This document shows positions 1 through 32,408 of a stretch of 64,000 nt of DNA, in pieces. The notes beneath the pieces were generated by a model. It saw only the letters and a list, made by a program, of their open reading frames with translations. It did no database searches and was not told where the DNA came from. The position numbers were made by a program, and so were the translations under genes. The stretch is from Minisyncoccota bacterium (GTDB lineage: Bacteria; Patescibacteriota; Minisyncoccia; Phycocordibacterales; Phycocordibacteraceae), in the NCBI GenBank assembly GCA_035531495.1, contig DATKSU010000005.1, forward strand, positions 41,984 through 105,983, given 5' to 3'. The stretch's first letter is position 1. The number at the start of each line of letters is the position of its first letter.

Positions 1-926
1 CACTCCGAAGGGCGACCAAAACGTGTCCTCATTGAAGAGCTGCCCCTCGACGAGAGCCCGCGCCTCTCCTGGCGTATAGAGGTCAGCGAACAGGGGCGCG
101 AAGTGCGCCCAGGTCGCGACCGTGAGCGGCTCGTACTCGGTGATGGCGACGTGCGACCAGTAGATGCCGTCCTTGTAGAGGCGCTCGCGCATCGCGGCGC
201 TGACGAGCTCGATGTTGAGCTTGCAGAAATGCTCGCCGTCTTCCTTCCCGAGCAGGGATGCGATGTGCTCCAAAATGCGCAGGTTCTCGACGAGGATGGC
301 GTTGAACGGCACGTCCTTCACCCAGAAATGCCGCTTCATGCACAGTTCCGCGTCGAAGTCGCAGGTGCGGTTCGCGTCGACGAGCTCGAGGCGCCGCGCG
401 AGGTGGTCGTGGAGCGAGATGTCGGCGGGCACGTGGAGGACGGCGTCGAAGCGCGGCGAGTTGTCCTCGCCGGATTCATCCGGATTGATGATGCCGACCA
501 AGTGGTGGTCGTGCGGGTCGCGTTTGTCGATGAGGTACTCGTAGTACTTCGCGAGCGCCGGATAGAGCTCGGCGAGGAAGGCGTCGTCATGCGTCTCCTT
601 GTAGATCTCCCACACGGCGTACGCGAGCATTGGCGGCTGCGTGAGCGCGCTCGTGCCGTTCGTGCCCCAGTCGTAGCGGTGCAGGTTGCCCGGCACCCAG
701 TAGATGATGTGCGGGATCATGCCGTCCGGGAACTGCCGCGAGACGAGCGCGCGCAATTCCGCCATCGCCGCTTCGGGCTCGGACTTCGCGAGCACGATGG
801 CATGGAAACAGGAATCCCAGAGCCACTGGTAGGGATAGGCGTCGGGCGACGGGACCGTGTACATGTGCCCGTCGGTCGTGCGGCGATTCGCGGCGAGGAG
901 CTCAAACGCCTGGTCGCGGATGGACA
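1..926 (-). CDS. (alpha/alpha)6-barrel glycoside hydrolase (GH63/GH37/glucosyl- or mannosylglycerate hydrolase-like), 5' part; runs off window start
   Basis: Minus-strand translation from ATG at 926-924 gives MSIRDQAFELLAANRRTTDGHMYTVPSPDAYPYQWLWDSCFHAIVLAKSEP...PDESGEDNSPRFD..., open to position 1 with no stop. The YxWLWDS motif is typical of six-hairpin glycosidases. It is absent from the ORF track because it has no in-window stop. The + ORF 103..981 is its antisense shadow. Confidence 0.6.
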
Positions 927-1028
927 TATAGGCACTATACCCCGCCCCCGCAGCGCCTCCCGGCGTCGCGGGATGGATTAGGCGCTTAAGCAAGCGCGGC
1001 CGGTCATGTTTCTACAACCAGTGGTAAC

Positions 1029-1250
1029 ATGGCACTACGTCTGCTCTCTATGCTTACCTCCTTCTTTCTCATCATCGGCGGCACGTTCGGCTTCCTCGCC
1101 GCGTGCATCGCGTTCCTCATCACCTTTCAGGAATACCGGAAGCACAAGTTCGAGGGCTGGCGGCTCTGGCGCGAGGCGCTCACTGTCGCCACGTTCACTT
1201 TCGTATTCTTCTTCGGGTTATCGCTGCTCATCGGCTACATGCTGAAATAA
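1029..1250 (+). CDS. small two-TM membrane protein, hypothetical
   Basis: 73-aa ORF with two hydrophobic helices (LLSMLTSFFLIIGGTFGFLAACIAFLI; TVATFTFVFFFGLSLLIGYML). Coding-like composition. Confidence 0.4.
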   Translation: MALRLLSMLTSFFLIIGGTFGFLAACIAFLITFQEYRKHKFEGWRLWREALTVATFTFVFFFGLSLLIGYMLK

Positions 1251-1353
1251 CGGCCTCGTTCAGAACAAATACCTATCAGCTACGAAGGCAAAAGAAAAAG
1301 CCACCAAGAAGACCGCAACTGATTGCGGTTATCCATATGCTATTATCCGCTAT

Positions 1354-1719
1354 ATGCAAAACTCTATGGAAAGAAATGCTATGTTCCTAGAGGGAACCCT
1401 TGAAGATGCCGAAAAGATTTTAGCAACCGAGGCCTCGGCAAATGAACACATTGCGCACCTTAAAACACTCCTTGTCTCTGTAGACACTCCTGAAGGACGA
1501 CTTGCTATTGCCGACTACGGCGTTAGTCAGATAAGTGAGAATGAGAACGAAAAACTCGCTTCGTATTTCTTTGTTGTGTCGAGTTTGAAAACACTCTCTC
1601 GGGAGGCGCGTGATTTCTTTACAGATACGATGCTGTACTGCGAGGACGATATAGGCCCACTCAAAAGTGCAGGTGCTGTCCGAAATATGTACGAAAAAGA
1701 AATACGCCCTGTCTTGTGA
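1354..1719 (+). CDS. hypothetical acidic protein (low-GC island)
   Basis: 121-aa ORF in an AT-richer segment. No recognisable domain. Confidence 0.35.
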   Translation: MQNSMERNAMFLEGTLEDAEKILATEASANEHIAHLKTLLVSVDTPEGRLAIADYGVSQISENENEKLASYFFVVSSLKTLSREARDFFTDTMLYCEDDIGPLKSAGAVRNMYEKEIRPVL

Positions 1720-1755
1720 CACAGGGCGCGTGCCTATGAAGGCATGTGAGGCGTT

Positions 1756-1956
1756 TTACCGCTTCGACTTGTTGGGGACAGCGTTGGCACTCTTGGTGTG
1801 CCCGCTGGAGTCTTTATGCACGGCGATGTGCTGGTGGTCAGCTTTGCCGCTGCCAGTATCGCGAAGGTAGTGGGTGGTCGTACCACCACCAGACCGCGAA
1901 CTCGTTTTCTCGCTTACAGAACCGCCACTGTCTTTGAACCAATCAGACCAACCCAT
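1756..1956 (-). CDS. small Gly/Ser/Thr/His-rich hydrophilic protein, hypothetical
   Basis: 66-aa ORF MGWSDWFKDSGGSVSEKTSSRSGGGTTTHYLRDTGSGKADHQH... It overlaps the equally doubtful + ORF 1798..2118. Only one of the two, if either, is real. Confidence 0.2.
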   Translation of the reverse strand: MGWSDWFKDSGGSVSEKTSSRSGGGTTTHYLRDTGSGKADHQHIAVHKDSSGHTKSANAVPNKSKR

Positions 1957-2293
1957 GATACATCTCCTCTAGCTAGGGGGAACGGAAACAAAGGAACTCC
2001 TCCAACTGTATTTGGAATTGAAACAACTATAGCACGAAGAAATGTGTTCAGCAAGTCAGTCGGTCAGTCTACCCAGCCCCGCTCTTCAGGATATAAACCC
2101 TTTGACAGGGTACTCTGAAAAGATGCTGAGAAACATTTTGAAGTCTTCTGCTGTAAATGACTTACTTTAGCGGATACAATTCCGAGTTCTATTATCCCAT
2201 AGCCCGCGTCATGTGAGCTTGTATTTCCTTATTTATCTTCGATGCGCGCTCTCGTGGACGCTGCTGGAGCCGGGATTCTGAGTTTCGTGCGGT

Positions 2294-2923
2294 TTAACTC
2301 TTCGGCTTCCTAACTAAGATCTCGGCCTTGATATTAAACATGGGGGTCCCGTCGGGGTGAGTGGCTTTGGCCCAGCCATCCCCTTCGTTGTAGGAAAGCA
2401 CTTCCCAGTCAGAATACAGTTCCTTTATTTCTCCCAAGGCGGGGTAAAAATGCACTCGATCCGTTTTCGAGAAATCCCCTTCTACAGTAAACGCGGCGAT
2501 GGCATTCAAACCTCCTTCTCTCGTGTGTTCCTTGATATTCCGAATAAACGCTTCAGCCTCTTGCCTTGTCAGGTGATGGAGCATGAAAGTCGAAACGACG
2601 AAATCGTACTCCTTTGTAAGACCCTCCCTTGCGTCGCCGACTTCCGCTTTGAAGTTCGAGAGTGATTCCTTCTCGGCGAAGCGATTCATCGCCTCTACCC
2701 CTACGCGGGAAATGTCTATCGCGCTGACCTGAAAACCGCGTTGCGCTAGAGCCAGCGCATTCCTTCCCTGCCCCGCGCCAAATTCGATAACCTTGGCGTC
2801 TTTAGGTATGAGTGTCGCGCCTTCAAGGACAAAGGCCTCTGGCCTGCCTCCGCCAAAGACCTTGTCGCTTTCGGAATACCGTTGGTCATACTTTTCGGAC
2901 AGACCGCTTCTTGGCTTTTCCAT
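2294..2923 (-). CDS. class I SAM-dependent methyltransferase, TehB-like
   Basis: VIEFGAGQGRNALALAQRGFQVSAIDIS matches SAM-binding motif I with the TehB-type architecture. 209 aa. About 50% GC, lower than the core. Confidence 0.75.
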   Translation of the reverse strand: MEKPRSGLSEKYDQRYSESDKVFGGGRPEAFVLEGATLIPKDAKVIEFGAGQGRNALALAQRGFQVSAIDISRVGVEAMNRFAEKESLSNFKAEVGDAREGLTKEYDFVVSTFMLHHLTRQEAEAFIRNIKEHTREGGLNAIAAFTVEGDFSKTDRVHFYPALGEIKELYSDWEVLSYNEGDGWAKATHPDGTPMFNIKAEILVRKPKS

Positions 2924-2970
2924 ATTAAGAAAGTATATGAAATTTTATATTCAATCACAGAAGACACTCA

Positions 2971-3597
2971 CTAGAGCCGGGAAGCTAAAATCTTCTCAAT
3001 GAGCAATTGTTTTGATTCCTCGCTCCCGAATTCATGATCGGCGCCCACTTCGCTTGCGTCGATATGGAGCTTCGGCATCGCGAGCGCGGTAAGCACCTCA
3101 GCGCTTTTGTGTTCTCTCATATATGCAGTCGTACTCGGACTAAAGGGGTTCTGGAACTTGTTCTTCTTCTCATCTTCGTTCAATGAATCTATGTACTTAA
3201 GCGCTGCTTCAGAGTTATCGTTGTCTATCGTAATCAACGCATAGCGCGTCGTCGACAAAGTACTTCTGCGGCTGCCGAGATAATACGCGACGATAACTGC
3301 TGAGAAGCTGTGCGCGACGAAGATGATTTGCGCAGGCTTCCGTTTTTGACTCGCTACCTCGATAGCTTCATCGAGGTCGGAAAAGTAATCTTCCATGGAC
3401 ATCGCATTCATGTCAGGAAGTGAGTCGTCATGGTAAAGCGGATCGTTCGCGAACTGTATGGAAATCGTGGAGCCGTGTTTTTTCAGAGCATCAAACAGGT
3501 ATTGAACGAGCGGCTCGTCCTTGCCGCCTGAGATGCCCGATATGATGACATAAAGCGTGTCGGTTGCATCATTGCGAGCCGTATTGAACTGGGCCAT
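2971..3597 (-). CDS. alpha/beta-hydrolase fold protein (putative esterase)
   Basis: Nucleophile-elbow-like IIFVAHSFSAVI (GxSxG-type) in a 208-aa protein. Low-GC context. Confidence 0.55.
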   Translation of the reverse strand: MAQFNTARNDATDTLYVIISGISGGKDEPLVQYLFDALKKHGSTISIQFANDPLYHDDSLPDMNAMSMEDYFSDLDEAIEVASQKRKPAQIIFVAHSFSAVIVAYYLGSRRSTLSTTRYALITIDNDNSEAALKYIDSLNEDEKKNKFQNPFSPSTTAYMREHKSAEVLTALAMPKLHIDASEVGADHEFGSEESKQLLIEKILASRL

Positions 3598-3654
3598 GAT
3601 GGAATGAAATATAAAGGGACGCTCCAGTGTCCCTTTACTTTACCACGGACAGTG

Positions 3655-3924
3655 CTACAGGTCGAACTCGCCGGCTTTCACGCCCCTGATGAAAGCGTCC
3701 CATTCGGCACGGGTGTAGGTTAGGGTGGTCTTCTTGGGGTCTTTGGTGTCGCGCACCATGACGGAATCGCCTTCCATCTTTACGGCAACGCAGAAGCGAT
3801 TCGCTGGATTCCAAACCGACCACGACGATTTTCGGAATCCGTCTCCATCGACGGAACCGGGTACAGCAGGAGTACTGGGAGACCGATGCAGCAAAACCGC
3901 AATGGTATTCATCGCTGATTTCAT
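3655..3924 (-). CDS. DUF397 domain protein
   Basis: GFRKSSWSVWNPANRFCVAVKMEGDSVMVRDTKDPKKTTLTYTRAEWDAFIRGVKAGEFDL matches the DUF397 pattern (WRKSSYS...CVEVA...VRDSKDP...F...W.AF...K.GEFD) known from actinomycetes. Confidence 0.7.
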   Translation of the reverse strand: MKSAMNTIAVLLHRSPSTPAVPGSVDGDGFRKSSWSVWNPANRFCVAVKMEGDSVMVRDTKDPKKTTLTYTRAEWDAFIRGVKAGEFDL

Positions 3925-4106
3925 AGCTCAACTCCTCTTTGGCCAAAGAGTGGAAAGAGCACCATTGCCCAATCCGGAATTATCGTACCAACTTTCTCCC
4001 CGGAGTCAACTTATCGGTAGCGCCGTTCCAGCTGCGTCTCGTTCCGCTTCCGTTTGAACCACAAAGACCGCTTAGCTGGGTGGTCTTTCTGAGATTCTGG
4101 AAACTG

Positions 4107-4180
4107 CGCGAGAGACGGGACTTGAACCCGCAACCTCCGCCGTGACAGGGCGGCGCTCTAACCAATTGAGCTACTCCCGC
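4107..4180 (-). tRNA. tRNA-Asp (GTC)
   Basis: Reverse complement GCGGGAGTAGCTCAATTGGTTAGAGCGCCGCCCTGTCACGGCGGAGGTTGCGGGTTCAAGTCCCGTCTCTCGC folds as a cloverleaf with anticodon loop CTGTCAC. 7-bp acceptor, G73, no encoded CCA. Confidence 0.9.
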
Positions 4181-4365
4181 AAAGTGAGGCAAACGGCGCG
4201 GAGCGCCGGACTGCGAAAGGTTGCGGAACTGCGCTTGTAGGGATTCCGGAACCTCGAGCAGGACGGGTGCCGCAGGCACCGTTTCGCCGAACGCGCGCGG
4301 AGTATCGTAATCGATACTCCGCGGCATTCTGGCGTATCCTACCAAACCCGCCCGAAAATGTCCTG

Positions 4366-4439
4366 TGCCGGGGGACGGAATTGAACCGTCGACCTTGGGT
4401 TTATGAATCCCATGCTCTAACCAACTGAGCTACCCCGGC
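4366..4439 (-). tRNA. tRNA-Met (CAT), elongator type (or Ile2/lysidine)
   Basis: Reverse complement GCCGGGGTAGCTCAGTTGGTTAGAGCATGGGATTCATAAACCCAAGGTCGACGGTTCAATTCCGTCCCCCGGCA. G1-C72 is paired and the anticodon loop is TTCATAA. Confidence 0.85.
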
Positions 4440-4695
4440 AGTGGAAATAATGTAGCAATGATGCGAGAACTTGACAAATATATCGCGAAAGCTACTCTGA
4501 TGACATGCATCGGGATCACAGCTATTGCGCAATGAAGACGAGCGGGGTCATCGGCCTCGGCCATTCGACTTGCGCATAGCCGCGATTTTTCTTCCCGATA
4601 TCATCCCCTCCGTCCCGTAAAGAAAGACCTCGGCTCTGCGGAAGCCGAGGTCTTCTCGCTTTCGGGCAGGGCATGCACTTTGACAGGAGTTCACC

Positions 4696-5298
4696 ATGAC
4701 CAAGGATGACGGACGCGTCGTGTTTCTCGAGGGACGTCGCGCGTATCTGCGACCGCCACAGGAATCGGACATTCCCTTGTTACTGCGCTGGTTCAATGAT
4801 CCGGGCGTGCGGAAGTTCCTCGGGCGGCTCTATCCGATGACCGAGGCGCAGGAGAAGAAGTTCATCATGAGGACGTTCGACGAAGCGCGGAACAATCTCG
4901 TCTTCATCATTGTCCTCAAGGGCGCGTCTCCGGAACGCGATCGACCCATCGGCACGATGGGCCTCCATCAGATCGAGTGGCACAACGGCGTCGCGACGAC
5001 GGGGGCGGCAATCGGCGAGAAGAGTTGCTGGGAGAAAGGTTACGGGACGGAAGCGAAAATGCTCATGCTCGAATACGCCTTCAATGCCCTGAACCTTCGC
5101 AAGATATACTCCCGCGTCCTCGCCACGAACCACCGCAGCAACGCCTACAGCAAGAAGTGCGGCTACACGCACGTCGCGACGCTGCCGGAGCGCCACTTTC
5201 GCGACGGCCGCTATGTCGACGAGCACATCCTCGAGGTGCGCGCCGAGACGTGGCGCGCGCTGTGGGAACGTTCGAGAAAGAAGTTCTTGCCGAAATGA
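4696..5298 (+). CDS. GNAT family N-acetyltransferase (RimJ/RimL-like)
   Basis: 200 aa with a typical GNAT core (LHQIEWHNGVATTGAAIGEKSCWEKGYGTEAKMLMLEYAF) and C-terminal RDGRYVDEHIL. Confidence 0.8.
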   Translation: MTKDDGRVVFLEGRRAYLRPPQESDIPLLLRWFNDPGVRKFLGRLYPMTEAQEKKFIMRTFDEARNNLVFIIVLKGASPERDRPIGTMGLHQIEWHNGVATTGAAIGEKSCWEKGYGTEAKMLMLEYAFNALNLRKIYSRVLATNHRSNAYSKKCGYTHVATLPERHFRDGRYVDEHILEVRAETWRALWERSRKKFLPK

Positions 5299-5303
5299 TT
5301 CGG

Positions 5304-5326
5304 CGCGCCGCCCCTCCGGGGCGGCG
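5304..5326. terminator. GC hairpin between convergent GNAT and histidine-kinase genes (putative bidirectional terminator)
   Basis: gcgccgcccc-tcc-ggggcggcg followed by atttctt. It sits in the 34-nt gap between the ends of two convergent genes. Confidence 0.45.
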
Positions 5327-5331
5327 ATTTC

Positions 5332-6930
5332 TTACGCCGGCAATTCAACGATGAAGGTCGAGCCCCTGCCCTGCCCTGCCGATTCGGCGCGGATGGTGCC
5401 GCCGTGCGCGGCGACGATGTTCTTCGCGATGTAGAGACCGTAGCCGGTGGAGTATACGTTCACCTTCTGCGATTCCTTGCCGTGGCCGCCCTCGGTGAAG
5501 AGCCGGGCTTTGTCTTCGTCCGTGATGCCGACGCCGGTATCCTTCACCGCGAATACGAGCTTGCCGTTCTCCTTCTTGAGCGAGACGGCGATTGAGCCCG
5601 ACGGGGTGTAATTGATAGCGTTCTCGATGAGATTGCGCAGCACGTGGCTGCCGAGCTCGGCGCGGTCACCCGTCATCTGGTACGACTGCGAGTCGTCGGC
5701 CGCAAATGAGAGCGCGAGACCTTTCGCCTCCGCTCCGGGTCGTTCCTTCTCCGCTATCTCCGCAGCAAGCGCCTTCAAGTCGAACGGCTCCTTCTTGTAC
5801 GTCATCGTACCCTTCTTCTGGTTCGACGCCTTGAGGATATCCGCGACCGAGTCCACGCCATCGCGCGACTGCGCGAGCGCGCGCTCGACGAGCGGCCGCA
5901 GCTCCTGCGACAGCGCGCCGAAATCCCCGTCGAGGAGCGCAGCGAACGTCCCCATATCTTTCGTGAGGAACCCTTTCACCTCGTGGCCGATGAAGTGCAG
6001 AAGTCCTTCCTGCCGCTCATTCGTCTGTTCGAGCTCCTCACTCAACTTCTCAAGATTCAGCATGTCCATGACGATCTTGACGCTCCCGATGAGCACGATG
6101 ATGAACGCAGTTATGTTGATGGCGACGGCGCTCAGGCTCACGGAATAAATGATGTTAACGAAACTGAAAACGGTCACCATAAAACCGAGCAGTCCGGCAG
6201 TCGCAACCTTCAGGTTGAAATTGAATAATCGGTGCCGATAGATGGCGTATGAGATGAGTGCGATGAACGGGAGCAAGAAGAGCGCGGCGAGAGGTATGAA
6301 GCTGAGTTGGTTGAGGAATACGGGAAGGAAAACGTTAAAAAGAAGTATGAGAATTGCGGTGAGTGCCATTCCGGCAGCAATCGAATACTCCTGTTTGCGT
6401 TCTTGAACCTCTGTGCTTCCCCAAGCCTTCCGAATAATTGAGGTGACACCGGCGATAAGAAGACCGAAAGCAACTATAGAGAAAATGATAATACCTGGCC
6501 CCCGTTCAGGATTCGTGACGTATCCAGGAGGAGCAAGCGCGGTAATGCCCGAAAATACGAAAGGGGTCAGAACCAGTATCATGGTCATTCCCACGATAGG
6601 AATGAGGCCGAATTTATACCAGCGCGGGAAAGTCACCTTATCCTTCGGAAAGACGTATGCGAGCTGGAAGAAGAGGAGGGCGTGAAGCGTGGAGAGAAAA
6701 AGATGGAATCGGAGCGCCCAGAGGGTCGCGTCGATAGTCGTGAACTTGTACTCGAGGTAATTCGAAACGCCCCAGATGGCGGTAAGAATGGAGAAATAGA
6801 AGAACGTCCGACTGGTTATACTCCTCGGATTCGTGAGATAGATGAGGAACCCGAGCAAGATGATGCCGGCGATAGCGACGCCGACCGAAAGCAGGTCGAA
6901 ATTAATATCGACGAGCGCGGTGATTCCCAT
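5332..6930 (-). CDS. sensor histidine kinase with polytopic N-terminal membrane domain
   Basis: About 8 TM helices, then an H-box (FIGHEVKGFLTKDMG) and HATPase_c motifs (NLIENAINYT; VKDTGVGI; GGHGKESQKVNVYSTGYGLYIAKNIVAAHGGTI). No adjacent response regulator. Confidence 0.9.
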   Translation of the reverse strand: MGITALVDINFDLLSVGVAIAGIILLGFLIYLTNPRSITSRTFFYFSILTAIWGVSNYLEYKFTTIDATLWALRFHLFLSTLHALLFFQLAYVFPKDKVTFPRWYKFGLIPIVGMTMILVLTPFVFSGITALAPPGYVTNPERGPGIIIFSIVAFGLLIAGVTSIIRKAWGSTEVQERKQEYSIAAGMALTAILILLFNVFLPVFLNQLSFIPLAALFLLPFIALISYAIYRHRLFNFNLKVATAGLLGFMVTVFSFVNIIYSVSLSAVAINITAFIIVLIGSVKIVMDMLNLEKLSEELEQTNERQEGLLHFIGHEVKGFLTKDMGTFAALLDGDFGALSQELRPLVERALAQSRDGVDSVADILKASNQKKGTMTYKKEPFDLKALAAEIAEKERPGAEAKGLALSFAADDSQSYQMTGDRAELGSHVLRNLIENAINYTPSGSIAVSLKKENGKLVFAVKDTGVGITDEDKARLFTEGGHGKESQKVNVYSTGYGLYIAKNIVAAHGGTIRAESAGQGRGSTFIVELPA

Positions 6931-6942
6931 GTCGTAAGGATA

Positions 6943-8007
6943 TCAGACGATTGACACTGCTTCTTCGAGCGGGAAGCGTAGCGCGTGTGCAGTAGGAGGA
7001 TCAGCGCGGCCGATGCGGAACATGAAAGCGATGTGCTTCCCGTCCGCGTTGAAAATCTGTGACGCTTTCCCGTATGCAGTCATGACGAGCCGCTGCTCCG
7101 CTGTCGTGAACATATCGCTCTCTCCTGCCGCTATCTTAAGCTTGAAGAACAAGACGCCGGTGAGCGGCTGAAAGCTGAGGCCGAGCGACGTCGCGGCGAG
7201 CCAGGTCCGCTCTACTGCGCGTCCGACTTTCACGAAGTCGATTGGTTCCGTGCCATCGATGATGAACGCCCCCATGGCGGCAGCGGAAGCATTCGTAGCC
7301 CCGTTCTGCTTCGCTACGATGCGATTGAAGCCGAGCTTGGCAAGGATGCGCATGACGGACCAGTTATTGAACATCTTGAACATCTTTTCCGCCGGCGGAG
7401 GCAGTTCGAGCGTCTTGATGTAAAAGCCTATCTTCTTCGCATCGTCTTCCTCCTTGGTCCAGGTCACGTGACTGAAAAAGAAATCATGAAGAGCGCGATT
7501 CGCGAGCATCACTTCCTCATTCGTCGAGCCGACGCGCCCGAGGACCGCGATGGCTTCCTTATCCTTTACGAGCTTGAGTGATCCTGGACGGCTTCCCACG
7601 GCGGCACTATGGAGCGTGTCCTCTTCGGCCTGCGTCAACGGCTCGGTGGCGTAGGGCTTGCGGTTCGAGATGCGTTCATAAATGAAATCCGCGAGCACGT
7701 CTCTCGGCGCGGAAGCGTCTTTGCGCAACGTGACCGTCGCGACATGCCACGCGTCGCCTTTGTCCGGAAAATACGAGACATTGGCCGCATATCCCTCTTT
7801 CGAAGAGGCAATAACGAGGTTCTCGAGCGCCGCGCCGCAGGCGAGATACGACGCGCGCTGGCCCCAGCCGTAGTAGGACTGATCGCGCTCCGGGCGTACG
7901 TGAATCTCGACCGTCAGACCGGAGACGACGAAGCGCCACGGCTGGCAATTCTCTCCGGAAGGCGCTTGGTTCGCTGCAGCAAGGATACGTTCCAGCGCGG
8001 TATCCAT
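6943..8007 (-). CDS. tandem-domain nitroreductase-family protein (Acg-like / SagB-type dehydrogenase-like)
   Basis: SGENCQPWRF nitroreductase signature near the N-terminus. The second half of the 354-aa protein is also nitroreductase-like. Confidence 0.7.
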   Translation of the reverse strand: MDTALERILAAANQAPSGENCQPWRFVVSGLTVEIHVRPERDQSYYGWGQRASYLACGAALENLVIASSKEGYAANVSYFPDKGDAWHVATVTLRKDASAPRDVLADFIYERISNRKPYATEPLTQAEEDTLHSAAVGSRPGSLKLVKDKEAIAVLGRVGSTNEEVMLANRALHDFFFSHVTWTKEEDDAKKIGFYIKTLELPPPAEKMFKMFNNWSVMRILAKLGFNRIVAKQNGATNASAAAMGAFIIDGTEPIDFVKVGRAVERTWLAATSLGLSFQPLTGVLFFKLKIAAGESDMFTTAEQRLVMTAYGKASQIFNADGKHIAFMFRIGRADPPTAHALRFPLEEAVSIV

Positions 8008-8012
8008 AGATC

Positions 8013-9200
8013 TTACAATCCGAAGGATCGCGCGAACGCTTCGGCGGCGGCGCGGCGGCGTGATTGTGATTCTTTTGAGTCGTAGCTGGACTCGAGCTTT
8101 TCGTCGAGAGAAATCAGTGCCCGATCATTGATGAGCGGCTGGCCGGCGAGTATCTTGCGGACGCAGTATGCGACCGCCGCGCCGTTCACCATAGCCGCGA
8201 TGCCGAGTTGCGGCCATGAGACGAGGGTCTTGCCCATCTCTTTTAGGGATTCCTGCATACGGATGGTGACGGTATCGGCGCCCACCCACTTCGTAATCAT
8301 CTTCCCGATGCCGAACTTGTCGAGCCCTTTGAGCGTCTCGTAGGAGACGTCACCCATGCGCCCGTGGAAGAATTCAGGGTGCGGCTTCATGTCATGGCGT
8401 TCGATCTCAATCAGAGCGTTATCGCCGTTATCGGCACCCATGACGATGGGGATGCGTCTCTTCCGCGCCTGTTCGCGGATGAGATACTTGAGCGCGAGAT
8501 TATCGATTTCGTCTACCACTATGTCGAGACCGTCGAAGAATTTCTCGATGTTCCCTTCCGTCAGTCCGTCAGGGAAGAGCTCGAGTTCGGTATAGGGATT
8601 TATCTCGTAGATGGTTCTCGCCGCCATCTCGACCTTCAGCATCCCGAGCCGGTCAGCACCGGCAAGGATGCGGTTCGTATTCGAAAGCGCGAGCCGATCC
8701 ATGTCGGCCAGCTTCATCTTCTTCCCTCCGCCGGACAATGCGATTGCAAACGCGACCGATGAGCCGACAGACAAGCCCGCGATGCCGATGGCGGCGTTAT
8801 AGAACTTCTCCTGCTCCTCTTCCGTGACGAGGTTCCGGTTGCGCGCCGTGCGCACGATGCGGTACTCGTCTTCCGGAAGGATGTGCGCGGCCAGATAGCG
8901 CCAGGGGAGGTATGCCCACCTGCCGTGCTCATGGAGCGGCTTCTCGTCTTGGAGCGATTTATAGTACGCCTGGAACTCTTTCTCAAAATCGGGCGTGTAG
9001 ACCTTCGAGGGATTCTTTATGCCGAAAAGCTCGCGCTGCTCTTCTTCGTAGTCGTCCGATATCTGCTTGATAGCGCCTTCTTTCACGAGCGACTCAAGGC
9101 GGGTGGTATCCTTCTCGCGTGAGAGGTCGAGAATAGTGGGCTTGGATTCGACGGGTTCGCTCGCGAGCTTGTCCAGAACGTTTCCAAGATTTTTCGACAT
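8013..9200 (-). CDS. ThiF/MoeB/E1-like adenylyltransferase-family protein with ~130-aa N-terminal extension
   Basis: Rossmann nucleotide-binding loop IGIAGLSVGSSVAFAIALSGGG, then E1-like core (RIPIVMGADNGDNALIE). 395 aa. Confidence 0.7.
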   Translation of the reverse strand: MSKNLGNVLDKLASEPVESKPTILDLSREKDTTRLESLVKEGAIKQISDDYEEEQRELFGIKNPSKVYTPDFEKEFQAYYKSLQDEKPLHEHGRWAYLPWRYLAAHILPEDEYRIVRTARNRNLVTEEEQEKFYNAAIGIAGLSVGSSVAFAIALSGGGKKMKLADMDRLALSNTNRILAGADRLGMLKVEMAARTIYEINPYTELELFPDGLTEGNIEKFFDGLDIVVDEIDNLALKYLIREQARKRRIPIVMGADNGDNALIEIERHDMKPHPEFFHGRMGDVSYETLKGLDKFGIGKMITKWVGADTVTIRMQESLKEMGKTLVSWPQLGIAAMVNGAAVAYCVRKILAGQPLINDRALISLDEKLESSYDSKESQSRRRAAAEAFARSFGL

Positions 9201-9220
9201 ATGAGATGGTTAAAGGCGTA

Positions 9221-10783
9221 TCAATGGCCGTTTATGACCCACTTCTGCTTGATGCCCGGCGGAAAGTATTTCGGATGCTCGTGCGGCCAAAAGACGAGGC
9301 GAGGGATGACCTTCTGGCGTATCGAACCATAGAGATAACGATACTCGTCACTCGAACTTGAAAGGCTTTTTATGATGCTTTCCGTCAGCGCATCTTTGAT
9401 GGATTCGCTATCCTTTACGCCCGCGGCGAGCTCGACGTTGATTTCGAGGTATTCGTTATGCTTCGCGTCGTGCTCAGTCGTCATCGTGAAGCGTCCGGTG
9501 ATGGATTTCTCGATCGCGGGATTCTGCAAGCCGATCTTCACGTGCTCCGGGAAGATGATGGCGCCGTAGAGCTTCGTCGAGAGGTCGGAGCGTTCGTAGA
9601 GATAGACGAACGGCAGCTGTGTGACGGTATCATCGATTCCGGCACGCTTCGCCTCCGCGGCGAGATTGATGCCGACGTCTGTGCACATCTTCACGACGTC
9701 ATCATACGTGAGCACGCCGCCCTGATCGCCGATGTCGTACCGGATGAACGGGAGCGGCGTACCGCCGGTCGCATGAATCTGGCCCTCCTTCCCCGCGTCG
9801 AAGGCGACGAAGTCCGGAATGAACTGCGCCAGGGTCGGCAAGCGGCGCGCCTCGCTGAAAAGCTTCCGGTAGAGCGCGTCATGCCTCAGGGCGAGCCGGC
9901 GCAAGAGTATCGAGAGCGGCGTCTCGGTGGCCATCGAGCCGAGCTCGGCGCTGCCGTAGATGTTCATGATGCTGCGGTAGGGATCCTTCATCCCGGTCTT
10001 CTTCATGAGGTACTCGCGGAAATGCTCGGAGAACGCCTCCGCGGCGCAGACGATGCGCATGTCCCACTGCGCCCATTCGATGCCGTGCTCGGGACCTTCG
10101 TCGATGAGATCCTTCATGAACGGCGGGTAGCCGCAGAGAATGAGTTGTTCGTACGACGGCGCCACGCGCGTGAGCGCCTCGAATATCTCTTTCTTGTTCA
10201 CGCCGGGCGTGATGATGGTGAGCGGCCAGCCGTTCTCCGAGATGCGGCGGAACGCTTCATATGTCAGTGTGCCCCCGATCCACACGCCCATGCCGAAGCC
10301 GATGACGACGAGCGTCGATTTCTTCGGGTCGAGGCCGCTGCGCTCGACGAACAGCCGGTGGTACACCATCGACGCTTCATGCGTATCATCCATGCGCGGG
10401 ATGTAGAACGGCTGTCCGGTCGAGCCGGACGTCGCGGTGAGGACGAGCGGCTTCTCGGCGAGCGCGTGCGCGACGCAGAGCGTATCCCACGGGTGCACGC
10501 GCAGGTAATTCGCCTTCGTTATGGGCGGGATGCGCTCTACGTCCTTGCTGCCGCGGATGGAGCCGGCATCGAAACCGAGCCGTTCGAGGAAGCTGCGGTA
10601 TGCCGGGACGTTCTTAAGCGCATACTTGAAACGGTTCAGGATGGCCGCGCTCGTCGCGCGCGACCAGTCCGCGCTTTCGTTCGTGCGAAGCTTCGTGATG
10701 AAGGCCGGGGAAACCGAAAAAATACGAGGCCGTGCTGGGGTCTTTTTGGTACGCACATAAGCCGATTGCCGGCTCTGTCGCAT
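9221..10783 (-). CDS. PaaK-like (phenylacetate-CoA ligase / F390-synthetase family) adenylate-forming enzyme
   Basis: P-loop-like TSGSTGQPFYIP, IGFGMGVW, YGSAELG. Start moved to ATG 10783-10781 (MRQSRQSAYV...). The 222 Arg-rich residues upstream in the track ORF look like wrong-frame extension. Confidence 0.75.
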   Translation of the reverse strand: MRQSRQSAYVRTKKTPARPRIFSVSPAFITKLRTNESADWSRATSAAILNRFKYALKNVPAYRSFLERLGFDAGSIRGSKDVERIPPITKANYLRVHPWDTLCVAHALAEKPLVLTATSGSTGQPFYIPRMDDTHEASMVYHRLFVERSGLDPKKSTLVVIGFGMGVWIGGTLTYEAFRRISENGWPLTIITPGVNKKEIFEALTRVAPSYEQLILCGYPPFMKDLIDEGPEHGIEWAQWDMRIVCAAEAFSEHFREYLMKKTGMKDPYRSIMNIYGSAELGSMATETPLSILLRRLALRHDALYRKLFSEARRLPTLAQFIPDFVAFDAGKEGQIHATGGTPLPFIRYDIGDQGGVLTYDDVVKMCTDVGINLAAEAKRAGIDDTVTQLPFVYLYERSDLSTKLYGAIIFPEHVKIGLQNPAIEKSITGRFTMTTEHDAKHNEYLEINVELAAGVKDSESIKDALTESIIKSLSSSSDEYRYLYGSIRQKVIPRLVFWPHEHPKYFPPGIKQKWVINGH

Positions 10784-10845
10784 GGATGCGCGCACGTTAC
10801 CACATAAATTGGCGTGTGTAAACGCCTGTGGGGATAGCGCTCTGA

Positions 10846-12354
10846 CTACGCCAGTCCCGGGAAGTAGTCGGTCTTGATGGAAAGGCGCGGGACGCCGAGC
10901 GTGTGGAGCGCGCGTTTCATGGCGTCCACCATGCCCGGCGGGCCGGAGAGGTAGAAGAGGCGGTTGCGATAATCGGGAATCTCGCGCTTGATGAACGCCG
11001 CGTCGATTGCGCCTGCGTGCGCGCCCGGCATGAGGGTCGTGCTGTCTGTTATGGCGTAGACGGTCCGCAAGCCGCGGGTCGCCGCGCTCGCGAAGACGTC
11101 CTGGTAGGCGACCTCTTCGGCCGTGCGGCTCGAGTAGAGGAGGACGGCATCGCGCGACTCCCCCGCCGCGACCAGGTGCCGCGCCATACTCGCGAAGGGC
11201 GTGACGCCCACCCCGCCCGCGATAAAGGCGAGCTTGTGATTCTTGTCGACCGGCATGGTGAAATCGCCCGAGAGCGATGCGGCCGTGACGACGCCGTCTT
11301 GCGGGATGGCCGCAAGCGCGCGCTTGAAGGCGCTCGGTTTCTCGTAGAAGCGGACGCCGAGCCGGATCTGGCCGTCCTCCGGCGCCGAGGCGATAGTGAA
11401 GTAGCGGCGGTTGCCGCGGCTGTCGAACGGCACATCGCGCAGCGTCCACTCGAGGTATTGCCCCGGACGGAAGGTGAACGGGCGATCGGGCCGGAAGACG
11501 AACTCGTAGATGCCGCGCGCGAGCTTATGGCGCTCCGTGAGCGTGAGCATGTAGCGGCCTTTCGGGCTCACGACGTACGAGAAGAGATTCCCGGCAAGGA
11601 GTGCCGTCTCCGGCGTGAAGTAGAAGGAGCCGACGTGCGCGGCCGGCACGAAGAGCACGCCGACGAGCGCGCCATAGATGATGCGCAGCGTGCGCGACGG
11701 CGGCATCGTGAGGGGTTCGGTGAGCATGACAAAGCCGAGGAAGAAGAACGCCGAGTGGAGGATGGTCTCGTTCAGGCCGGTCACGGGGCTGAGCGACGTG
11801 AACGCGGTGGCGAGGAGCGCGGCGACGCCGAACGCGATGACGAGGTCGTAGCGCCGGAGCTTGTGGACGATGGCGAGCCCGCCGATGACGACGAACGGCA
11901 GCAAAGGCAGGTTCCCCGACACCCACCACGTCGCGTTCACCGCGAAGACGAAGGCCGAGAACGCGACCGCGAACGCCGCCGGGTTGAAGACGTGCTTGTT
12001 CCCGAGCGAGAAGATGTACTTCGACGCGGTGCCGGCGGCGGCGATGAGCGCGTAGAGGATGGTTGCGCCGATGCTGCCGGCCGAGATGGGCGGCAGGATG
12101 AGGACGAGGATGAGCCCCGTGATGAGCGAGGATTCCGCGTTCGTCACCGCGTCGAAGATGTTCGCGAAAATGAGGTTCGTCGCCCACGAGCCCGCGACGA
12201 GCACGATGAGCGTATAGAGGAGCGGGACGGGCGCGTACGGCAGGATGCCGAATACGCCGAAGGCGAGCGCGACGACATAGAGAACGACGAGGTAGTAGAG
12301 CACGAGCCGATACATCGTCGTGCGGTCGATGAGGCGCTTCAGAGCGGTGATCAT
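10846..12354 (-). CDS. membrane-anchored FAD/NAD(P)-binding oxidoreductase (FNR-like C-terminal module on a ~250-aa polytopic N-terminal domain)
   Basis: C-terminal RYFTIASAP (RxYS FAD motif) and GGVGVTPF (NAD(P) motif). N-terminal half has 6-8 hydrophobic helices. Confidence 0.7.
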   Translation of the reverse strand: MITALKRLIDRTTMYRLVLYYLVVLYVVALAFGVFGILPYAPVPLLYTLIVLVAGSWATNLIFANIFDAVTNAESSLITGLILVLILPPISAGSIGATILYALIAAAGTASKYIFSLGNKHVFNPAAFAVAFSAFVFAVNATWWVSGNLPLLPFVVIGGLAIVHKLRRYDLVIAFGVAALLATAFTSLSPVTGLNETILHSAFFFLGFVMLTEPLTMPPSRTLRIIYGALVGVLFVPAAHVGSFYFTPETALLAGNLFSYVVSPKGRYMLTLTERHKLARGIYEFVFRPDRPFTFRPGQYLEWTLRDVPFDSRGNRRYFTIASAPEDGQIRLGVRFYEKPSAFKRALAAIPQDGVVTAASLSGDFTMPVDKNHKLAFIAGGVGVTPFASMARHLVAAGESRDAVLLYSSRTAEEVAYQDVFASAATRGLRTVYAITDSTTLMPGAHAGAIDAAFIKREIPDYRNRLFYLSGPPGMVDAMKRALHTLGVPRLSIKTDYFPGLA

Positions 12355-29745: not shown

Positions 29746-30387
29746 TCAGGGTTCCCGCCGGACGCCGTAACGGAGGATGACGAGGGTAGCGAGAGCGACT
29801 GCAAACGCTACGGCAGCGACGCGATACCAGAGAGGAAGGGCCCCCGTGTACGCGAAATAGAATCCGAACGGCGCGACGCCGATGGCGGTCGCGACGACGT
29901 AGGAACGCCACGGCATCGCGCTGAACAGCCCGAGCGCGTAGCTTAAGATGTCAACCGAGACGAGTATGCGCATGAGGACGACCATCCAGAAAAGATTCCG
30001 TTTCGGGATGCGGCTCTCGATTGCGCGAATGCGCTCAAGACCGATGAGCCGCGCGACGACCGGCTCGCCGAAACGGCGCGCTATAAGGAATGCGATTGCC
30101 GCGCCGAGCGTCCATCCGGCGATGCTCATGAGCGCCGTCGGCAGTGGTCCCCACGCGACCGCGCCGATGGGAATCAAGAGGGCGATGTCGAGCGGTATGA
30201 TGAATATGACAAAGACAGCCGTGAGGAGGATGTATGCAGCAACGCCGAGTATCCCGCCCTGCGTGACAAGGGTCGCGAGCGCCGCGTGATACCGCTCGGC
30301 CAGCACGGAAACCGCGATGAACGTGATCGCGAGCAAGAGAAGCGCGGCGATCTCCCCATGGAGCGTTCCTTTGGGAGGAATCTTCAT
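29746..30387 (-). CDS. DedA/TVP38 family membrane protein
   Basis: 213-aa polytopic protein with a DedA-like core (GPLPTALMSIAGWTLGAAIAFLIARRFG). Confidence 0.75.
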   Translation of the reverse strand: MKIPPKGTLHGEIAALLLLAITFIAVSVLAERYHAALATLVTQGGILGVAAYILLTAVFVIFIIPLDIALLIPIGAVAWGPLPTALMSIAGWTLGAAIAFLIARRFGEPVVARLIGLERIRAIESRIPKRNLFWMVVLMRILVSVDILSYALGLFSAMPWRSYVVATAIGVAPFGFYFAYTGALPLWYRVAAVAFAVALATLVILRYGVRREP

Positions 30388-30458
30388 GCGAATGAGTATA
30401 GCTTGAGCCTGATACCGCGAAAGGCGCCCTTTCGGGCGCCTTTCGCTACCGTGATGCC

Positions 30459-30520
30459 GAGCGGTACTGTACCGACTTTGACGAGGAACGGTACTGGTTC
30501 CCCCGAGCGGTACTGTACTG
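30459..30520. promoter_or_regulatory. three spaced copies of palindromic GGTAC-N-GTACC motif (gaRcGGTACTGTACc) upstream of dedA
   Basis: Copies at 30459-30473, 30487-30502 (degenerate) and 30505-30520, following a perfect hairpin aaaggcgccc-tttc-gggcgccttt at 30412-30440. Confidence 0.4.
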
Positions 30521-30696
30521 ATCCCAATGGGGGCCGGAAGCAGTTCCTGGCTTCACAACCGTGTTGCCCATGTCGGTCGTGCACCCCACCATATAAGGTA
30601 TCTAAGGGTCTTCCCAGCTCCCTTCTCTCTCCTTGGAATAGGCGCACCGGACTCATACGATCTTGAGATAGATTGGGCGTACTTTGGTGCTTTCGA

Positions 30697-30726
30697 GGTG
30701 CTTTAGGAGCGTGTCGGTCTTGAACC
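30697..30726. repeat. direct repeat copy A (gCTTTAGGAGCGTGTCGGTCTTGAAC), left boundary of AT-rich islet
   Basis: 26/27 identical to copy B at 32154-32183. Confidence 0.6.
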
Positions 30727-30753
30727 AAAATGAGACAAATGAGACACACCCCC

Positions 30754-31341
30754 TTAGAAAAAGCTCTCGGCCAAAACGTTGGAATCGAACTGAAGTGAAA
30801 GATCGCCTCGCGTCTTGCGGCCAGTCCAGTACTCACCCTCTAGGCGGCGATTCGGTCGCTTGATAATTTTTAGGATCGCCGCACCATCATGAATAGCACT
30901 CCTATCCCAAAGGGACGCCTTCGGACGATTCGTGTAGTTATAGGTCAGATACAGATCCTCGCCGTTAGCCGTTGCGTTTATGCTGGTGGTGGTACTGTAG
31001 CTAGTCGACTCTTTCGTCATGAGAGTGATATTTATGTCCGAGAAACTCTGACGAATCACCAGAATGACAGGGACCGGTGCGATCGATTGGCCAGTTTTCG
31101 GGTCGATCCAATCGCTCTTCAATTCGCCACGCCACGTTCCACGCAAGTCTGGAACCTTAATCGGCACACTGTTCCCTACTTGAGTATCGGAGGATGTGGT
31201 CGCGGTCACTGAGGTTGGCGACGATGTTGCAACAGCACTCGACGAATTCGACGATCCTGCGGACGCTACGAGTATGACCACCAGAAAGAATCCGCCAGCG
31301 ATCCAAAATATCTTACGTGAACTCCCGATCTTCGTTGTCAT
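30754..31341 (-). CDS. hypothetical N-terminally anchored protein with Ser/Thr-rich linker and beta-rich C-terminal domain
   Basis: MTTKIGSSRKIFWIAGGFFLVVILVASAG then S/T linker and a ~130-aa domain (RGTWRGEL...YWTGRKTRGDLSLQF). AT-rich codon usage unlike the core. Confidence 0.5.
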   Translation of the reverse strand: MTTKIGSSRKIFWIAGGFFLVVILVASAGSSNSSSAVATSSPTSVTATTSSDTQVGNSVPIKVPDLRGTWRGELKSDWIDPKTGQSIAPVPVILVIRQSFSDINITLMTKESTSYSTTTSINATANGEDLYLTYNYTNRPKASLWDRSAIHDGAAILKIIKRPNRRLEGEYWTGRKTRGDLSLQFDSNVLAESFF

Positions 31342-31632
31342 ACCGCGTCAGGGTTAGGGGTAAATCCTGATGGGCGGGTAGCACAAAACCCGCTACCAGG
31401 AAGGCCTTGCGGCCTCTATAGGAGTTTCCCCCTATAACGTAAGCCACGCCCTGATAACGGGTTTTCTGTGGCTTACGATTGTCGACCATGCCCGGGGACG
31501 AATCCCGCAGGTTTAGGCCATTTCTATTCGTGTGTCGAACTTGTACATAATAGCTCGTTTTCAGCTATCCTTGTAGACCCTAGCTTAGATCTAAGGTTTT
31601 GCGAAATAGGTTACCAACAGCAAGACTTTGCC

Positions 31633-31782
31633 CTATTCAGGCATCTCTTTCGGTTCGTCCTCAACATCTCTTTGTATTTCTTCAAATTCATTCTCGATCT
31701 CTGAGAGCCGCTTCTTACATGCCCATTCTGAAGTTAGAGTTTCAAATTTCTCGAGATATTCTATTTTCTGCTTTTTATCCAT
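31633..31782 (-). CDS. 49-aa charged coiled-coil-like small protein, hypothetical
   Basis: MDKKQKIEYLEKFETLTSEWACKKRLSEIENEFEEIQRDVEDEPKEMPE. Not in the ORF track (short). Confidence 0.3.
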   Translation of the reverse strand: MDKKQKIEYLEKFETLTSEWACKKRLSEIENEFEEIQRDVEDEPKEMPE

Positions 31783-31791
31783 AGTTATAGT

Positions 31792-31989
31792 CTAGCGAAA
31801 ATTATCACGCGGCCCGGATGGTCGGTGAAATATGTGAGCGTTATAATCCCGATCTAGTTTTAAATTTCCACATTCAGGACATGGGGTCTCTGAGATAAGA
31901 GTTCCTTTAGGAACTTCAATTTCATTCCGGAAGGAGCAATTCTCGCAGAGCACATATATCTTGTAGCTGGAGCCATTCTCATTATCCAT
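31792..31989 (-). CDS. zinc-ribbon small protein
   Basis: Two CxxC pairs (CENC...CPEC) in 65 aa. Confidence 0.45.
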   Translation of the reverse strand: MDNENGSSYKIYVLCENCSFRNEIEVPKGTLISETPCPECGNLKLDRDYNAHIFHRPSGPRDNFR

Positions 31990-32153
31990 ACAACCATTAT
32001 CTCACTTATGACGTATAAGTGAAGCTGCTCTCTAAGTAATTCAATGTTAACCAATTTTACTGTAATTGCGACACGAACCATCCTCAAACGTGGGAATTGA
32101 ACTGAAAATATGGTGCATATGCTAGAAACGCAAAAACCACTTTCGTGGTTTTA

Positions 32154-32183
32154 TGCGCTTTAGGACCGTGTCGGTCTTGAACT
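32154..32183. repeat. direct repeat copy B (gCTTTAGGACCGTGTCGGTCTTGAAC), right boundary of islet, 55 nt from tRNA 3' end
   Basis: See copy A. Confidence 0.6.
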
Positions 32184-32237
32184 GAATTTCGGCATTTTTG
32201 ATGCCGGGCGGTCTGATTAACAGGCCGCACTACCGTG

Positions 32238-32308
32238 TTGCGGGGGCGGGAATCGAACCCGCGTCTGGAGGTTATGAGCCTCCCGAGGTACCTCTCCTCT
32301 ACCCCGCT
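32238..32308 (-). tRNA. tRNA-Met (CAT), initiator-like
   Basis: Reverse complement AGCGGGGTAGAGGAGAGGTACCTCGGGAGGCTCATAACCTCCAGACGCGGGTTCGATTCCCGCCCCCGCAA. Anticodon loop is CTCATAA. It has a 1:72 mismatch (A.A) and an A11:U24 pair, which point to an initiator, but the G29 of the initiator GGG triplet is an A here. 4-nt variable loop. Confidence 0.75.
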
Positions 32309-32408
32309 ATATAATTTTCTAGCCCATCCGGAGCGCTTTCGCATTCGCTCTCCCGCGCGGTCGCCCGCTCGTATAGGACACTATACCGTTCCCGCGCGCG
32401 CGCGCAAG

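Follow-up and report, generated by a model that had tools for sequence, protein, structure and literature searches.

Does a stretch of low G+C content (GC) that lies beside two tRNA genes represent DNA that was acquired horizontally and, if so, by what route did it arrive? The stretch is found near the left end of the window, by which we mean the whole 64,000 nt of contig DATKSU010000005.1 that were analysed, and a first-pass annotation had described its positions ~1260-3950 as an accessory island adjacent to tRNA-Asp and tRNA-Met. The genomes of Patescibacteria, members of the candidate phyla radiation (CPR), are small and their routes of gene gain are poorly documented; a text search for genomic islands of Patescibacteria turned up no study devoted to them. 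The comparisons described below indicate that in this feature, referred to as the islet, the segment ~1251-4050 is probably lineage-specific, horizontally acquired accessory DNA that resides in a hot spot.

The interval between tRNA-Asp and the glycoside hydrolase gene differs from genome to genome

On its left side the islet is bordered by a gene for a GH63/MGH1-like glycoside hydrolase (GH). The nearest relatives of this protein occur in metagenome-assembled genomes of Candidatus Kaiserbacteria, Paceibacteria and Patescibacteria, and the 108,871-bp source contig is labelled Candidatus Paceibacterota at NCBI. Judged from its sequence relationships, the host is a Kaiserbacteria-like Patescibacterium. 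The comparison set consisted of ~160 loci around GH orthologues, which are 49-84% identical. The order tRNA-Met, tRNA-Asp, interval, GH was found in 22 related loci (GH identity 55-84%), in which the length of the interval ranged from ~0 to 7.2 kb. Two intervals were near-empty (~190 bp in L102, GH 84%, and ~82 bp in L106, GH 79%) and contained the tRNA trailer hairpin followed by a conserved TATAGT just before the GH start codon. Other intervals held an AAA_33 kinase-like gene (1.2 kb; L011 and L104, GH 84%), a peptidoglycan-binding protein (0.75 kb; L015, GH 73-75%) or a copper-resistance set consisting of CsoR, a copper P-type ATPase, a DsbD-like protein and PhoH/PIN (6.4 kb; L012, GH 80-84%). 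In L014 (GH 75-76%) there was no interval at all and tRNA-Met directly adjoined the GH gene. Of the 91 open reading frames (ORFs) in 21 intervals, 77 were confined to a single interval, and the window shared no ORF with another interval. Moreover, no relative of the six islet ORFs was detected within reach of GH in the ~160 loci, tblastn searches included. As expected of a genomic island, the islet is absent from the orthologous site of the relatives.

Homology of the window to the DNA of its sisters stops at ~940-979 on the GH side and at 4105 or 4093 on the tRNA side. Positions 4050-4104 are 78-88% identical to a segment of L055 and to the DNA that directly follows tRNA-Asp in L060. The interval that varies from genome to genome is ~980-4050, and the compositionally foreign block within it starts at ~1251. 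This latter position, which is close to the 1260 given by the first-pass annotation, follows from the 73-aa ORF TM73, which precedes it and is core-like in its GC at third codon positions (GC3). At the other edge a 56-nt trailer alone separates the 3' end of tRNA-Asp (4106) from the islet, which lies on the 3' side of the tRNA gene, as tRNA-linked genomic islands do.

The islet has a foreign composition

The first-pass annotation had set a drop in GC at ~1260-3950 against a core of >65%. The drop is real: GC of 1260-3950 is 0.494, and the lowest-GC stretch of that length (2691 nt) in the window is 1251-3941 with 0.495, ~3 standard deviations (SD) from the mean of all 2691-nt sliding windows (0.619, SD 0.040). 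The background had been set too high, as it amounts to 0.62. In tetranucleotide use no other 3-kb stretch deviates as much as 1001-4000 (z 4.3), which has a correlation of 0.45 with the window as a whole. GC3 is 0.43 in the gene of the acidic protein acid121, 0.64 in orf66, 0.59 in the methyltransferase gene, 0.60 in the hydrolase gene and 0.64 in the DUF397 gene, compared with 0.70-0.90 in the core genes of the window. Because the low GC is seen at third codon positions, the shift in composition is not an amino-acid effect. The islet has the atypical bases and oligonucleotides of an integrase-type tRNA-linked genomic island. Neither of the outcomes that had been named beforehand as speaking against an acquired island was obtained: the deviation in GC and tetranucleotides is strong, and the segment is not syntenic in the ~160 loci.

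Other low-GC patches exist in the window. One of these, at ~30.4-32.3 kb (30384-32340; GC 0.39-0.54, GC3 0.41-0.58), directly adjoins another tRNA-Met (32237-32308). It includes a 195-aa ORF (30754-31341, minus strand) with a Cap15 cyclic-dinucleotide receptor domain (PF18153, 3.6e-22), a domain of the type found in effectors of the cyclic oligonucleotide-based antiphage signalling system.

The islet is a mosaic of modules that occur elsewhere

At least three modules, each of which occurs elsewhere in other contexts, make up the islet (Table 1). Elsewhere the modules recur in low-GC patches, twice directly after tRNA-Met. The module next to the tRNA genes consists of DUF397 and a minimal alpha/beta hydrolase. 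Homologues of the two adjoin each other in at least four other high-GC Parcubacteria/Minisyncoccota contigs (L095, L097, L098 and L099), and the hydrolase is the downstream partner of DUF397 in the window, L095, L097 and L099. The amino acid identities to the pairs in other contigs are 77-86% for DUF397 and 66-73% for the hydrolase, the contexts being unrelated, and 2984-3868 forms one contiguous DNA block of the module that is 72-75% identical to other contigs. In assembly DAICZA01, which has the closest GH relative, the pair is located on a different contig, with a radical-SAM gene as its neighbour. The hydrolase gene has a low GC3 (0.52-0.55 versus ~0.7-0.8) in every host examined and lies within a multi-gene low-GC patch, which in L095 and L101 begins directly after tRNA-Met.

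The sequences H96-S97-F98-S99 and D187-H188 were invariant in an alignment of 15 hydrolase homologues. Pfam matches were sub-threshold only. In Foldseek the AlphaFold model (predicted local distance difference test, pLDDT, 90) matched feruloyl and cinnamoyl esterases and lipases with probability 1.0, template modelling (TM) scores of 0.6-0.7 and E ~1e-6. The 208-aa protein is thus predicted to have an alpha/beta hydrolase fold with a conserved nucleophile and histidine, and a putative role in ester hydrolysis, in the manner of an esterase, is likely. DUF397 is likely to be a BldB-like small regulator or a toxin-like partner of the hydrolase. A promoter-like site precedes it; such sites were not more numerous in the region than in shuffled sequences.

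The 209-aa methyltransferase forms a module by itself. Its match to the TehB family of Pfam extends over 156 residues and comprises the class I methyltransferase core. In the NCBIfam equivalog test for TehB it failed, as it scored 112, 102 and 98 bits with cut-offs of 303, 219.5 and 218. Its relatives (54-66% identity) are single genes in unrelated contexts in CPR genomes with a GC of 0.36-0.47, one of them from a host named Colwellbacteria, and their composition is native to these low-GC hosts. One homologue was located near a serine recombinase and tRNA-Lys (L090). In the other loci examined the methyltransferase was never found together with the hydrolase or DUF397. A role in methylating a small molecule or a toxic anion is likely. 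A defence system was also considered and rejected, since PADLOC gave only a generic methyltransferase match to mad2.

The remaining module is a pair of small ORFs. For acid121, 24 relatives were found among 1.84 billion representatives, and its predicted structure (pLDDT 91) gave no informative fold match. Relatives of orf66 with at least 90% identity are present on other contigs. In one of these (L201) the orf66 homologue (at least 90%) is convergent to an acid121 homologue (47% at the amino acid level) and lies next to a ribosomal-protein operon, and the hairpin 1704-1729 is included in a 413-nt block that is 75% identical to the DNA of L201. By this comparison orf66 and acid121 are a conserved convergent pair, one module of the mosaic, for which families offer no functional clue. 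The non-coding junction at 1957-2293 had no homology to the fetched loci except for one borderline match of 40 nt. TM73, called as a 66-aa gene in JGI and Logan contigs, had no family match and no tblastn match in any sister locus. The first-pass annotation had recognized the acidic 121-aa protein, the TehB-like methyltransferase, the alpha/beta hydrolase and DUF397 correctly; it had overlooked the 66-aa gene and a truncated tRNA.

The left edge carries a fragment of another tRNA gene

At the left edge of the low-GC block, homology to the L102 tRNA-Phe locus (10649-10720 and 45 nt upstream of it) extends over 1270-1289 and the flank 1290-1321. The score of the local alignment was 52, compared with 15.2 +/- 2.3 for shuffled sequences, of which 0 of 1000 reached it, and the site 1270-1329 is the best match of the L102 tRNA-Phe probe in the whole 64 kb. 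The homology of the tRNA ends in the D-arm. ARAGORN and Rfam did not call the truncated tRNA, as is expected of a fragment. In L102 itself tRNA-Phe is intact and belongs to a 2.2-kb low-GC (0.38-0.47) insertion (9642-11888) that separates tRNA-Thr(GGT) from tRNA-Thr(CGT) and also carries tRNA-Arg(TCT), an HNH-like ORF and two unknown ORFs. These two tRNA-Thr genes are 119 nt apart in the genome of the window (L129, 3586-3852) and 6 kb apart in L011, so that the site between them is a second hot spot.

Fragments of another anchor were observed in L011, where the 3' end of a histidine kinase gene (HisK) is present three times in direct orientation at 5850-8470: the real end and two orphans (~130 and ~90 nt) that consist of the last 90-140 nt of the gene. 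The orphans flank cassettes (a NYN-domain gene and alpha/beta hydrolases) that were inserted between HisK and tRNA-Met. With 85% identity to the allele of the window, the copy in the middle is nearer to that allele than to L011's own gene. As the orphan copies flank cassettes, fragments of anchor genes evidently stay at cassette borders in this lineage.

Genes and repeats of mobile elements were sought in and around the islet. Pfam scans of the islet ORFs and precomputed Pfam assignments of the neighbours revealed no integrase, recombinase or transposase in the islet or in ~10 kb on either side, and in the sister intervals none was present among the 25 best supported of the 50 Pfam families that 67 ORFs matched, or among 10 large ORFs close to the tRNA genes. 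Local alignment of tRNA-Asp and tRNA-Met to 941-4095 gave no score above those of dinucleotide shuffles. The statement in the first-pass annotation that no integrase or repeats were recognized thus holds, and the attachment (att) repeat of the tRNA-Asp 3' end that it had suggested seeking near 1260-1350 is absent. PHROG yielded nothing beyond families without a known function and generic methyltransferase families. IMG/VR contained no relatives of the hydrolase, the methyltransferase or acid121, nor of the L102 cassette ORF. The 5' 12-mer of the truncated tRNA was shared by 19 viral tRNAs with unrelated flanks and different anticodons. A prophage remnant or phage origin was rejected on these grounds.

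Table 1. Features of the islet and its borders in the window
Feature	Position	Strand	Details
GH63/MGH1-like glycoside hydrolase, 5' part	1-927	-	PF22422, 2e-50; gene leaves the window; conserved left anchor
TM73, 73-aa ORF with two hydrophobic stretches	1029-1250	+	GC3 0.81, core-like; within the variable interval
Truncated tRNA gene	1270-1329	-	5' 20 nt at 1270-1289 plus ~32-40 nt of upstream flank (GGTGGCTTTTTCTTTT) including hairpin 1312-1329; left edge of the low-GC block
acid121, acidic 121-aa protein	1354-1719	+	Uncharacterized small helical family; motif LASYFFxLSxLK...RDFxxDxMVYCE
Terminator-like hairpin common to the convergent acid121 and orf66	1704-1729	.	9-bp stem, then T-rich tail
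orf66, 66-aa Gly/Ser-rich hydrophilic ORF	1756-1956	-	AGGAG ribosome-binding site 7 nt upstream; gene call in independent assemblies
AT-rich non-coding junction between modules	1957-2293	.	GC 0.46
TehB-like class I S-adenosylmethionine-dependent methyltransferase, 209 aa	2294-2923	-	PF03848, 102 bits, 3.4e-29
Minimal alpha/beta hydrolase, 208 aa	2971-3597	-	Invariant HSFS (Ser97) and ADHEF (His188)
DUF397 (BldB-like) small protein	3655-3924	-	PF04149, 1.6e-13; first gene of the DUF397-hydrolase module
Promoter-like site upstream of DUF397	3982-4009	-	TTGACT-16-TACGAT, extended TG; consensus scan only
Conserved tRNA-Asp trailer	4050-4105	-	Terminator-like hairpin at 4063-4088, seen in fold; right edge of the variable interval
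tRNA-Asp (GTC)	4106-4180	-	ARAGORN; Rfam 71.8 bits; 3' end faces the islet
tRNA-Met (CAT)	4365-4439	-	ARAGORN and Rfam; upstream partner of tRNA-Asp in a conserved pair

Neighbouring sequences

The two minus-strand tRNAs of the first-pass annotation, Asp-GTC and Met-CAT, were found by both ARAGORN and Rfam, and Rfam recognized no family beyond them in 1-10000 or 1220-1350. The ~190-nt spacer between DUF397 and tRNA-Asp had been called hairpin-rich; the 181 nt in question (3925-4105) fold no better than shuffled sequences (z +0.33). The spacer between tRNA-Met and tRNA-Asp (4181-4364, minus strand) is strongly structured, with a minimum free energy of -90.3 versus -66.4 kcal/mol for shuffles (z -5.95), and holds a perfect 12-bp palindrome (4296-4323). 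It had no Rfam match. The first ~35 nt of the spacer (ACATTTT...TTTGATAGGAT-like) are also present behind tRNA-Met in L102 and L106, and among relatives the length of this spacer varies from 56 to 284 nt.

The TATAGT box is conserved 6-7 nt before the GH start codon in the window (934-939, minus strand) and in several sisters, among them L102 (5996-6001) and L106 (~1546). Its position suggests that the GH transcript may be leaderless or have a very short leader. The interval between HisK and tRNA-Met (4696-5298 in the window) is also variable: here its content is a GNAT acetyltransferase (GC3 0.81) and in L015 a GNAT that is 33% identical to it; the genes that L011 and L104 have there are unrelated. 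In L014, which has no visible tRNA-Asp, two or three tandem-like repeats of the tRNA-Met 5' end with ~50 nt of its upstream sequence (4477-4760) precede the tRNA-Met that adjoins the GH gene and lie next to a masked run of N.

Origin of the islet

Horizontal acquisition is well supported by the composition, the non-conserved synteny, the near-empty sites of L102 and L106 and the unrelated cargo in relatives. The block would then not share the vertical descent of the adjoining core. At least three independent low-GC modules (DUF397 with the small alpha/beta hydrolase, the TehB-like methyltransferase, and the pair of orf66 and acid121) would have been gained from an accessory pool common to Parcubacteria, at a hot spot that in Kaiserbacteria-like Patescibacteria would extend from the 3' trailer of tRNA-Asp to the promoter of the GH63-like hydrolase. 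The route that we infer as the most likely is recombination in which conserved neighbours (tRNA genes and gene 3' ends) would have served as anchors for the incoming DNA, the other end being joined by an illegitimate or decayed join. Such an anchored route would explain the orphan truncated tRNA and the foreign flank at the left edge. Taken alone, this integrase-free route is considered possible rather than probable.

Several observations weigh against this interpretation. TM73 is core-like and yet missing from the sisters, so that the interval is not uniformly foreign. Accessory genes are generally low in GC, which need not reflect the GC of a donor, and the hydrolase is low in GC in all hosts examined. 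The assignment of the tRNA fragment to Phe rests on one comparator locus (L102), the 12 nt of its 5' end are common to many tRNAs, and the donor context, an intact tRNA-Phe beside an acid121-like gene, was not found. In distant relatives some intervals hold housekeeping genes (GlmS, RNR), and part of the size variation there is therefore rearrangement and not cassette gain. Finally, the sample is without a relative between 84% and 100% GH identity.

The main rival explanation is a decayed island of the integrase type: an element inserted at the 3' end of tRNA-Asp and later lost its integrase and att sites by deletion or mutation. The foreign composition of a segment that abuts the 3' side of a tRNA gene, the tRNA gene fragment at its far edge and the methyltransferase homologue near a serine recombinase and tRNA-Lys in L090 would all agree with this, and the duplicated target 3' ends in L011 also fit site-specific insertion. 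We nevertheless consider it unlikely. Neither the islet, nor ~10 kb on either side, nor the sister intervals examined contain an integrase, recombinase or transposase; the repeats of tRNA-Asp and tRNA-Met are not above shuffles; the fragment at the far edge comprises the upstream flank and the 5' end of another tRNA gene, unlike an attR duplicate; and the conserved trailer (4050-4105) is intact between tRNA-Asp and the cargo. What is found is thus an integrase-less islet in a hot spot and not a classic self-mobile island; the observation of the first-pass annotation and its main interpretation, horizontally acquired DNA, stand.

Differential loss, in which an ancestral block was deleted in the sampled relatives and became low in GC by relaxed selection or weak GC-biased conversion, seems very improbable. 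It could draw on the distance of the closest sampled relative (84% GH identity), on the core-like GC3 of TM73 and on the divergence of the hydrolase and DUF397, which resembles that of core genes (66-86% versus 60-84%). However, close relatives each carry different cargo and not a subset of the islet, two near-empty junctions have preserved the tRNA trailer and the GH promoter, an orphan tRNA fragment marks the junction, and the three modules are located at unrelated loci in other genomes, including the DUF397-hydrolase pair that DAICZA01 has beside its radical-SAM gene on another contig. An even more remote explanation, to which we attach next to no weight, is an assembly or binning artefact that joined foreign low-GC DNA to the contig at repeated tRNA sequences. 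It might be suspected from the Logan contigs of three runs (L003, L007-L009), which end within tRNA-Met or tRNA-Asp, and from the contig of one JGI sample that ends within the acid121 gene; breaks at tRNA genes are, however, expected in de Bruijn graphs when a community holds related strains. JGI contig Ga0307372_10003275 extends from HisK over the tRNAs and the entire islet to CTP synthase, Logan SRR8554501_251401 from tRNA-Asp to a ROK gene, and Ga0307373_10004111 covers the tRNA side of the islet. The first two of these and the 108,871-bp NCBI contig cross both junctions, and the proteins are 100% identical across both junctions in contigs of independent assemblies, by which a chimera is ruled out.

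Discussion

As a small genomic islet the feature is ordinary and belongs to a known kind, and the integrase-free gain of cassettes is a lead rather than a claim. The value of the locus is that of a clean, checkable example: a conserved tRNA-flanked slot that is empty or differently filled across the clade and has no mobility genes. It provides one data point on how such genomes acquire accessory functions, with cargo from a common low-GC accessory pool. That Kaiserbacteria-like CPR bacteria gain genes mainly via integrase-free, tRNA-flanked landing pads (tRNA-Asp|GH, tRNA-Thr|tRNA-Thr and HisK|tRNA-Met) is a generalization that we regard as doubtful. If it were true, low-GC cassettes of a phylum-wide pool, some of them carrying tRNA genes, would enter by homology-anchored recombination of taken-up DNA and leave orphan anchor fragments at their borders, and DUF397 with the minimal hydrolase would be a new two-gene module that moved outside the Actinobacteria. 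This module outside the usual phylum of DUF397 is likewise offered as a lead and not as a claim.

The XRE-DUF397 (WhiJ/BldB-like) pairs of Actinobacteria were proposed to be type II toxin-antitoxin-like or regulatory (PMC2701414, PMC10364602, PMC10294661) and were described as Actinobacteria-specific (PMC2701414). The islet module resembles these pairs in that a small (~80-aa) DUF397 protein is the first gene of a conserved two-gene module. It differs from them in its partner, which is a 208-aa alpha/beta hydrolase instead of an Xre-HTH protein, and in its host, a Patescibacterium. No adjacent Xre-HTH gene is present, as upstream of DUF397 there is only the 181-nt spacer and then tRNA-Asp. The methyltransferase has the Pfam domain and the class I core of the TehB tellurite-resistance methyltransferase; unlike TehB, it scores at roughly a third to a half of the cut-offs set for NCBIfam equivalogs, and its nearest relatives are uncharacterized CPR proteins.

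Homology-facilitated illegitimate recombination and Campbell-type integration of transforming DNA are described in naturally transformable bacteria. The case of the islet differs from these in that it is drawn from the anatomy of the junctions only and not from DNA uptake. It has in common with them one conserved anchor next to the insert, the lack of site-specific machinery and orphan anchor fragments at the borders (the tRNA here, the HisK 3' ends in L011). Compared with the usual tRNA-associated islands, the islet is only ~3 kb long, is devoid of an integrase, att direct repeats, mobility genes and phage genes, has at its far edge the 5' fragment of a different tRNA instead of a 3' duplicate of the target tRNA, and resides in a CPR bacterium with a reduced genome. 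With tRNA-associated genomic islets it shares the atypical composition, the position on the 3' side of a tRNA gene, the absence from the corresponding site of relatives, the alternative cargo found there and the mosaic structure.

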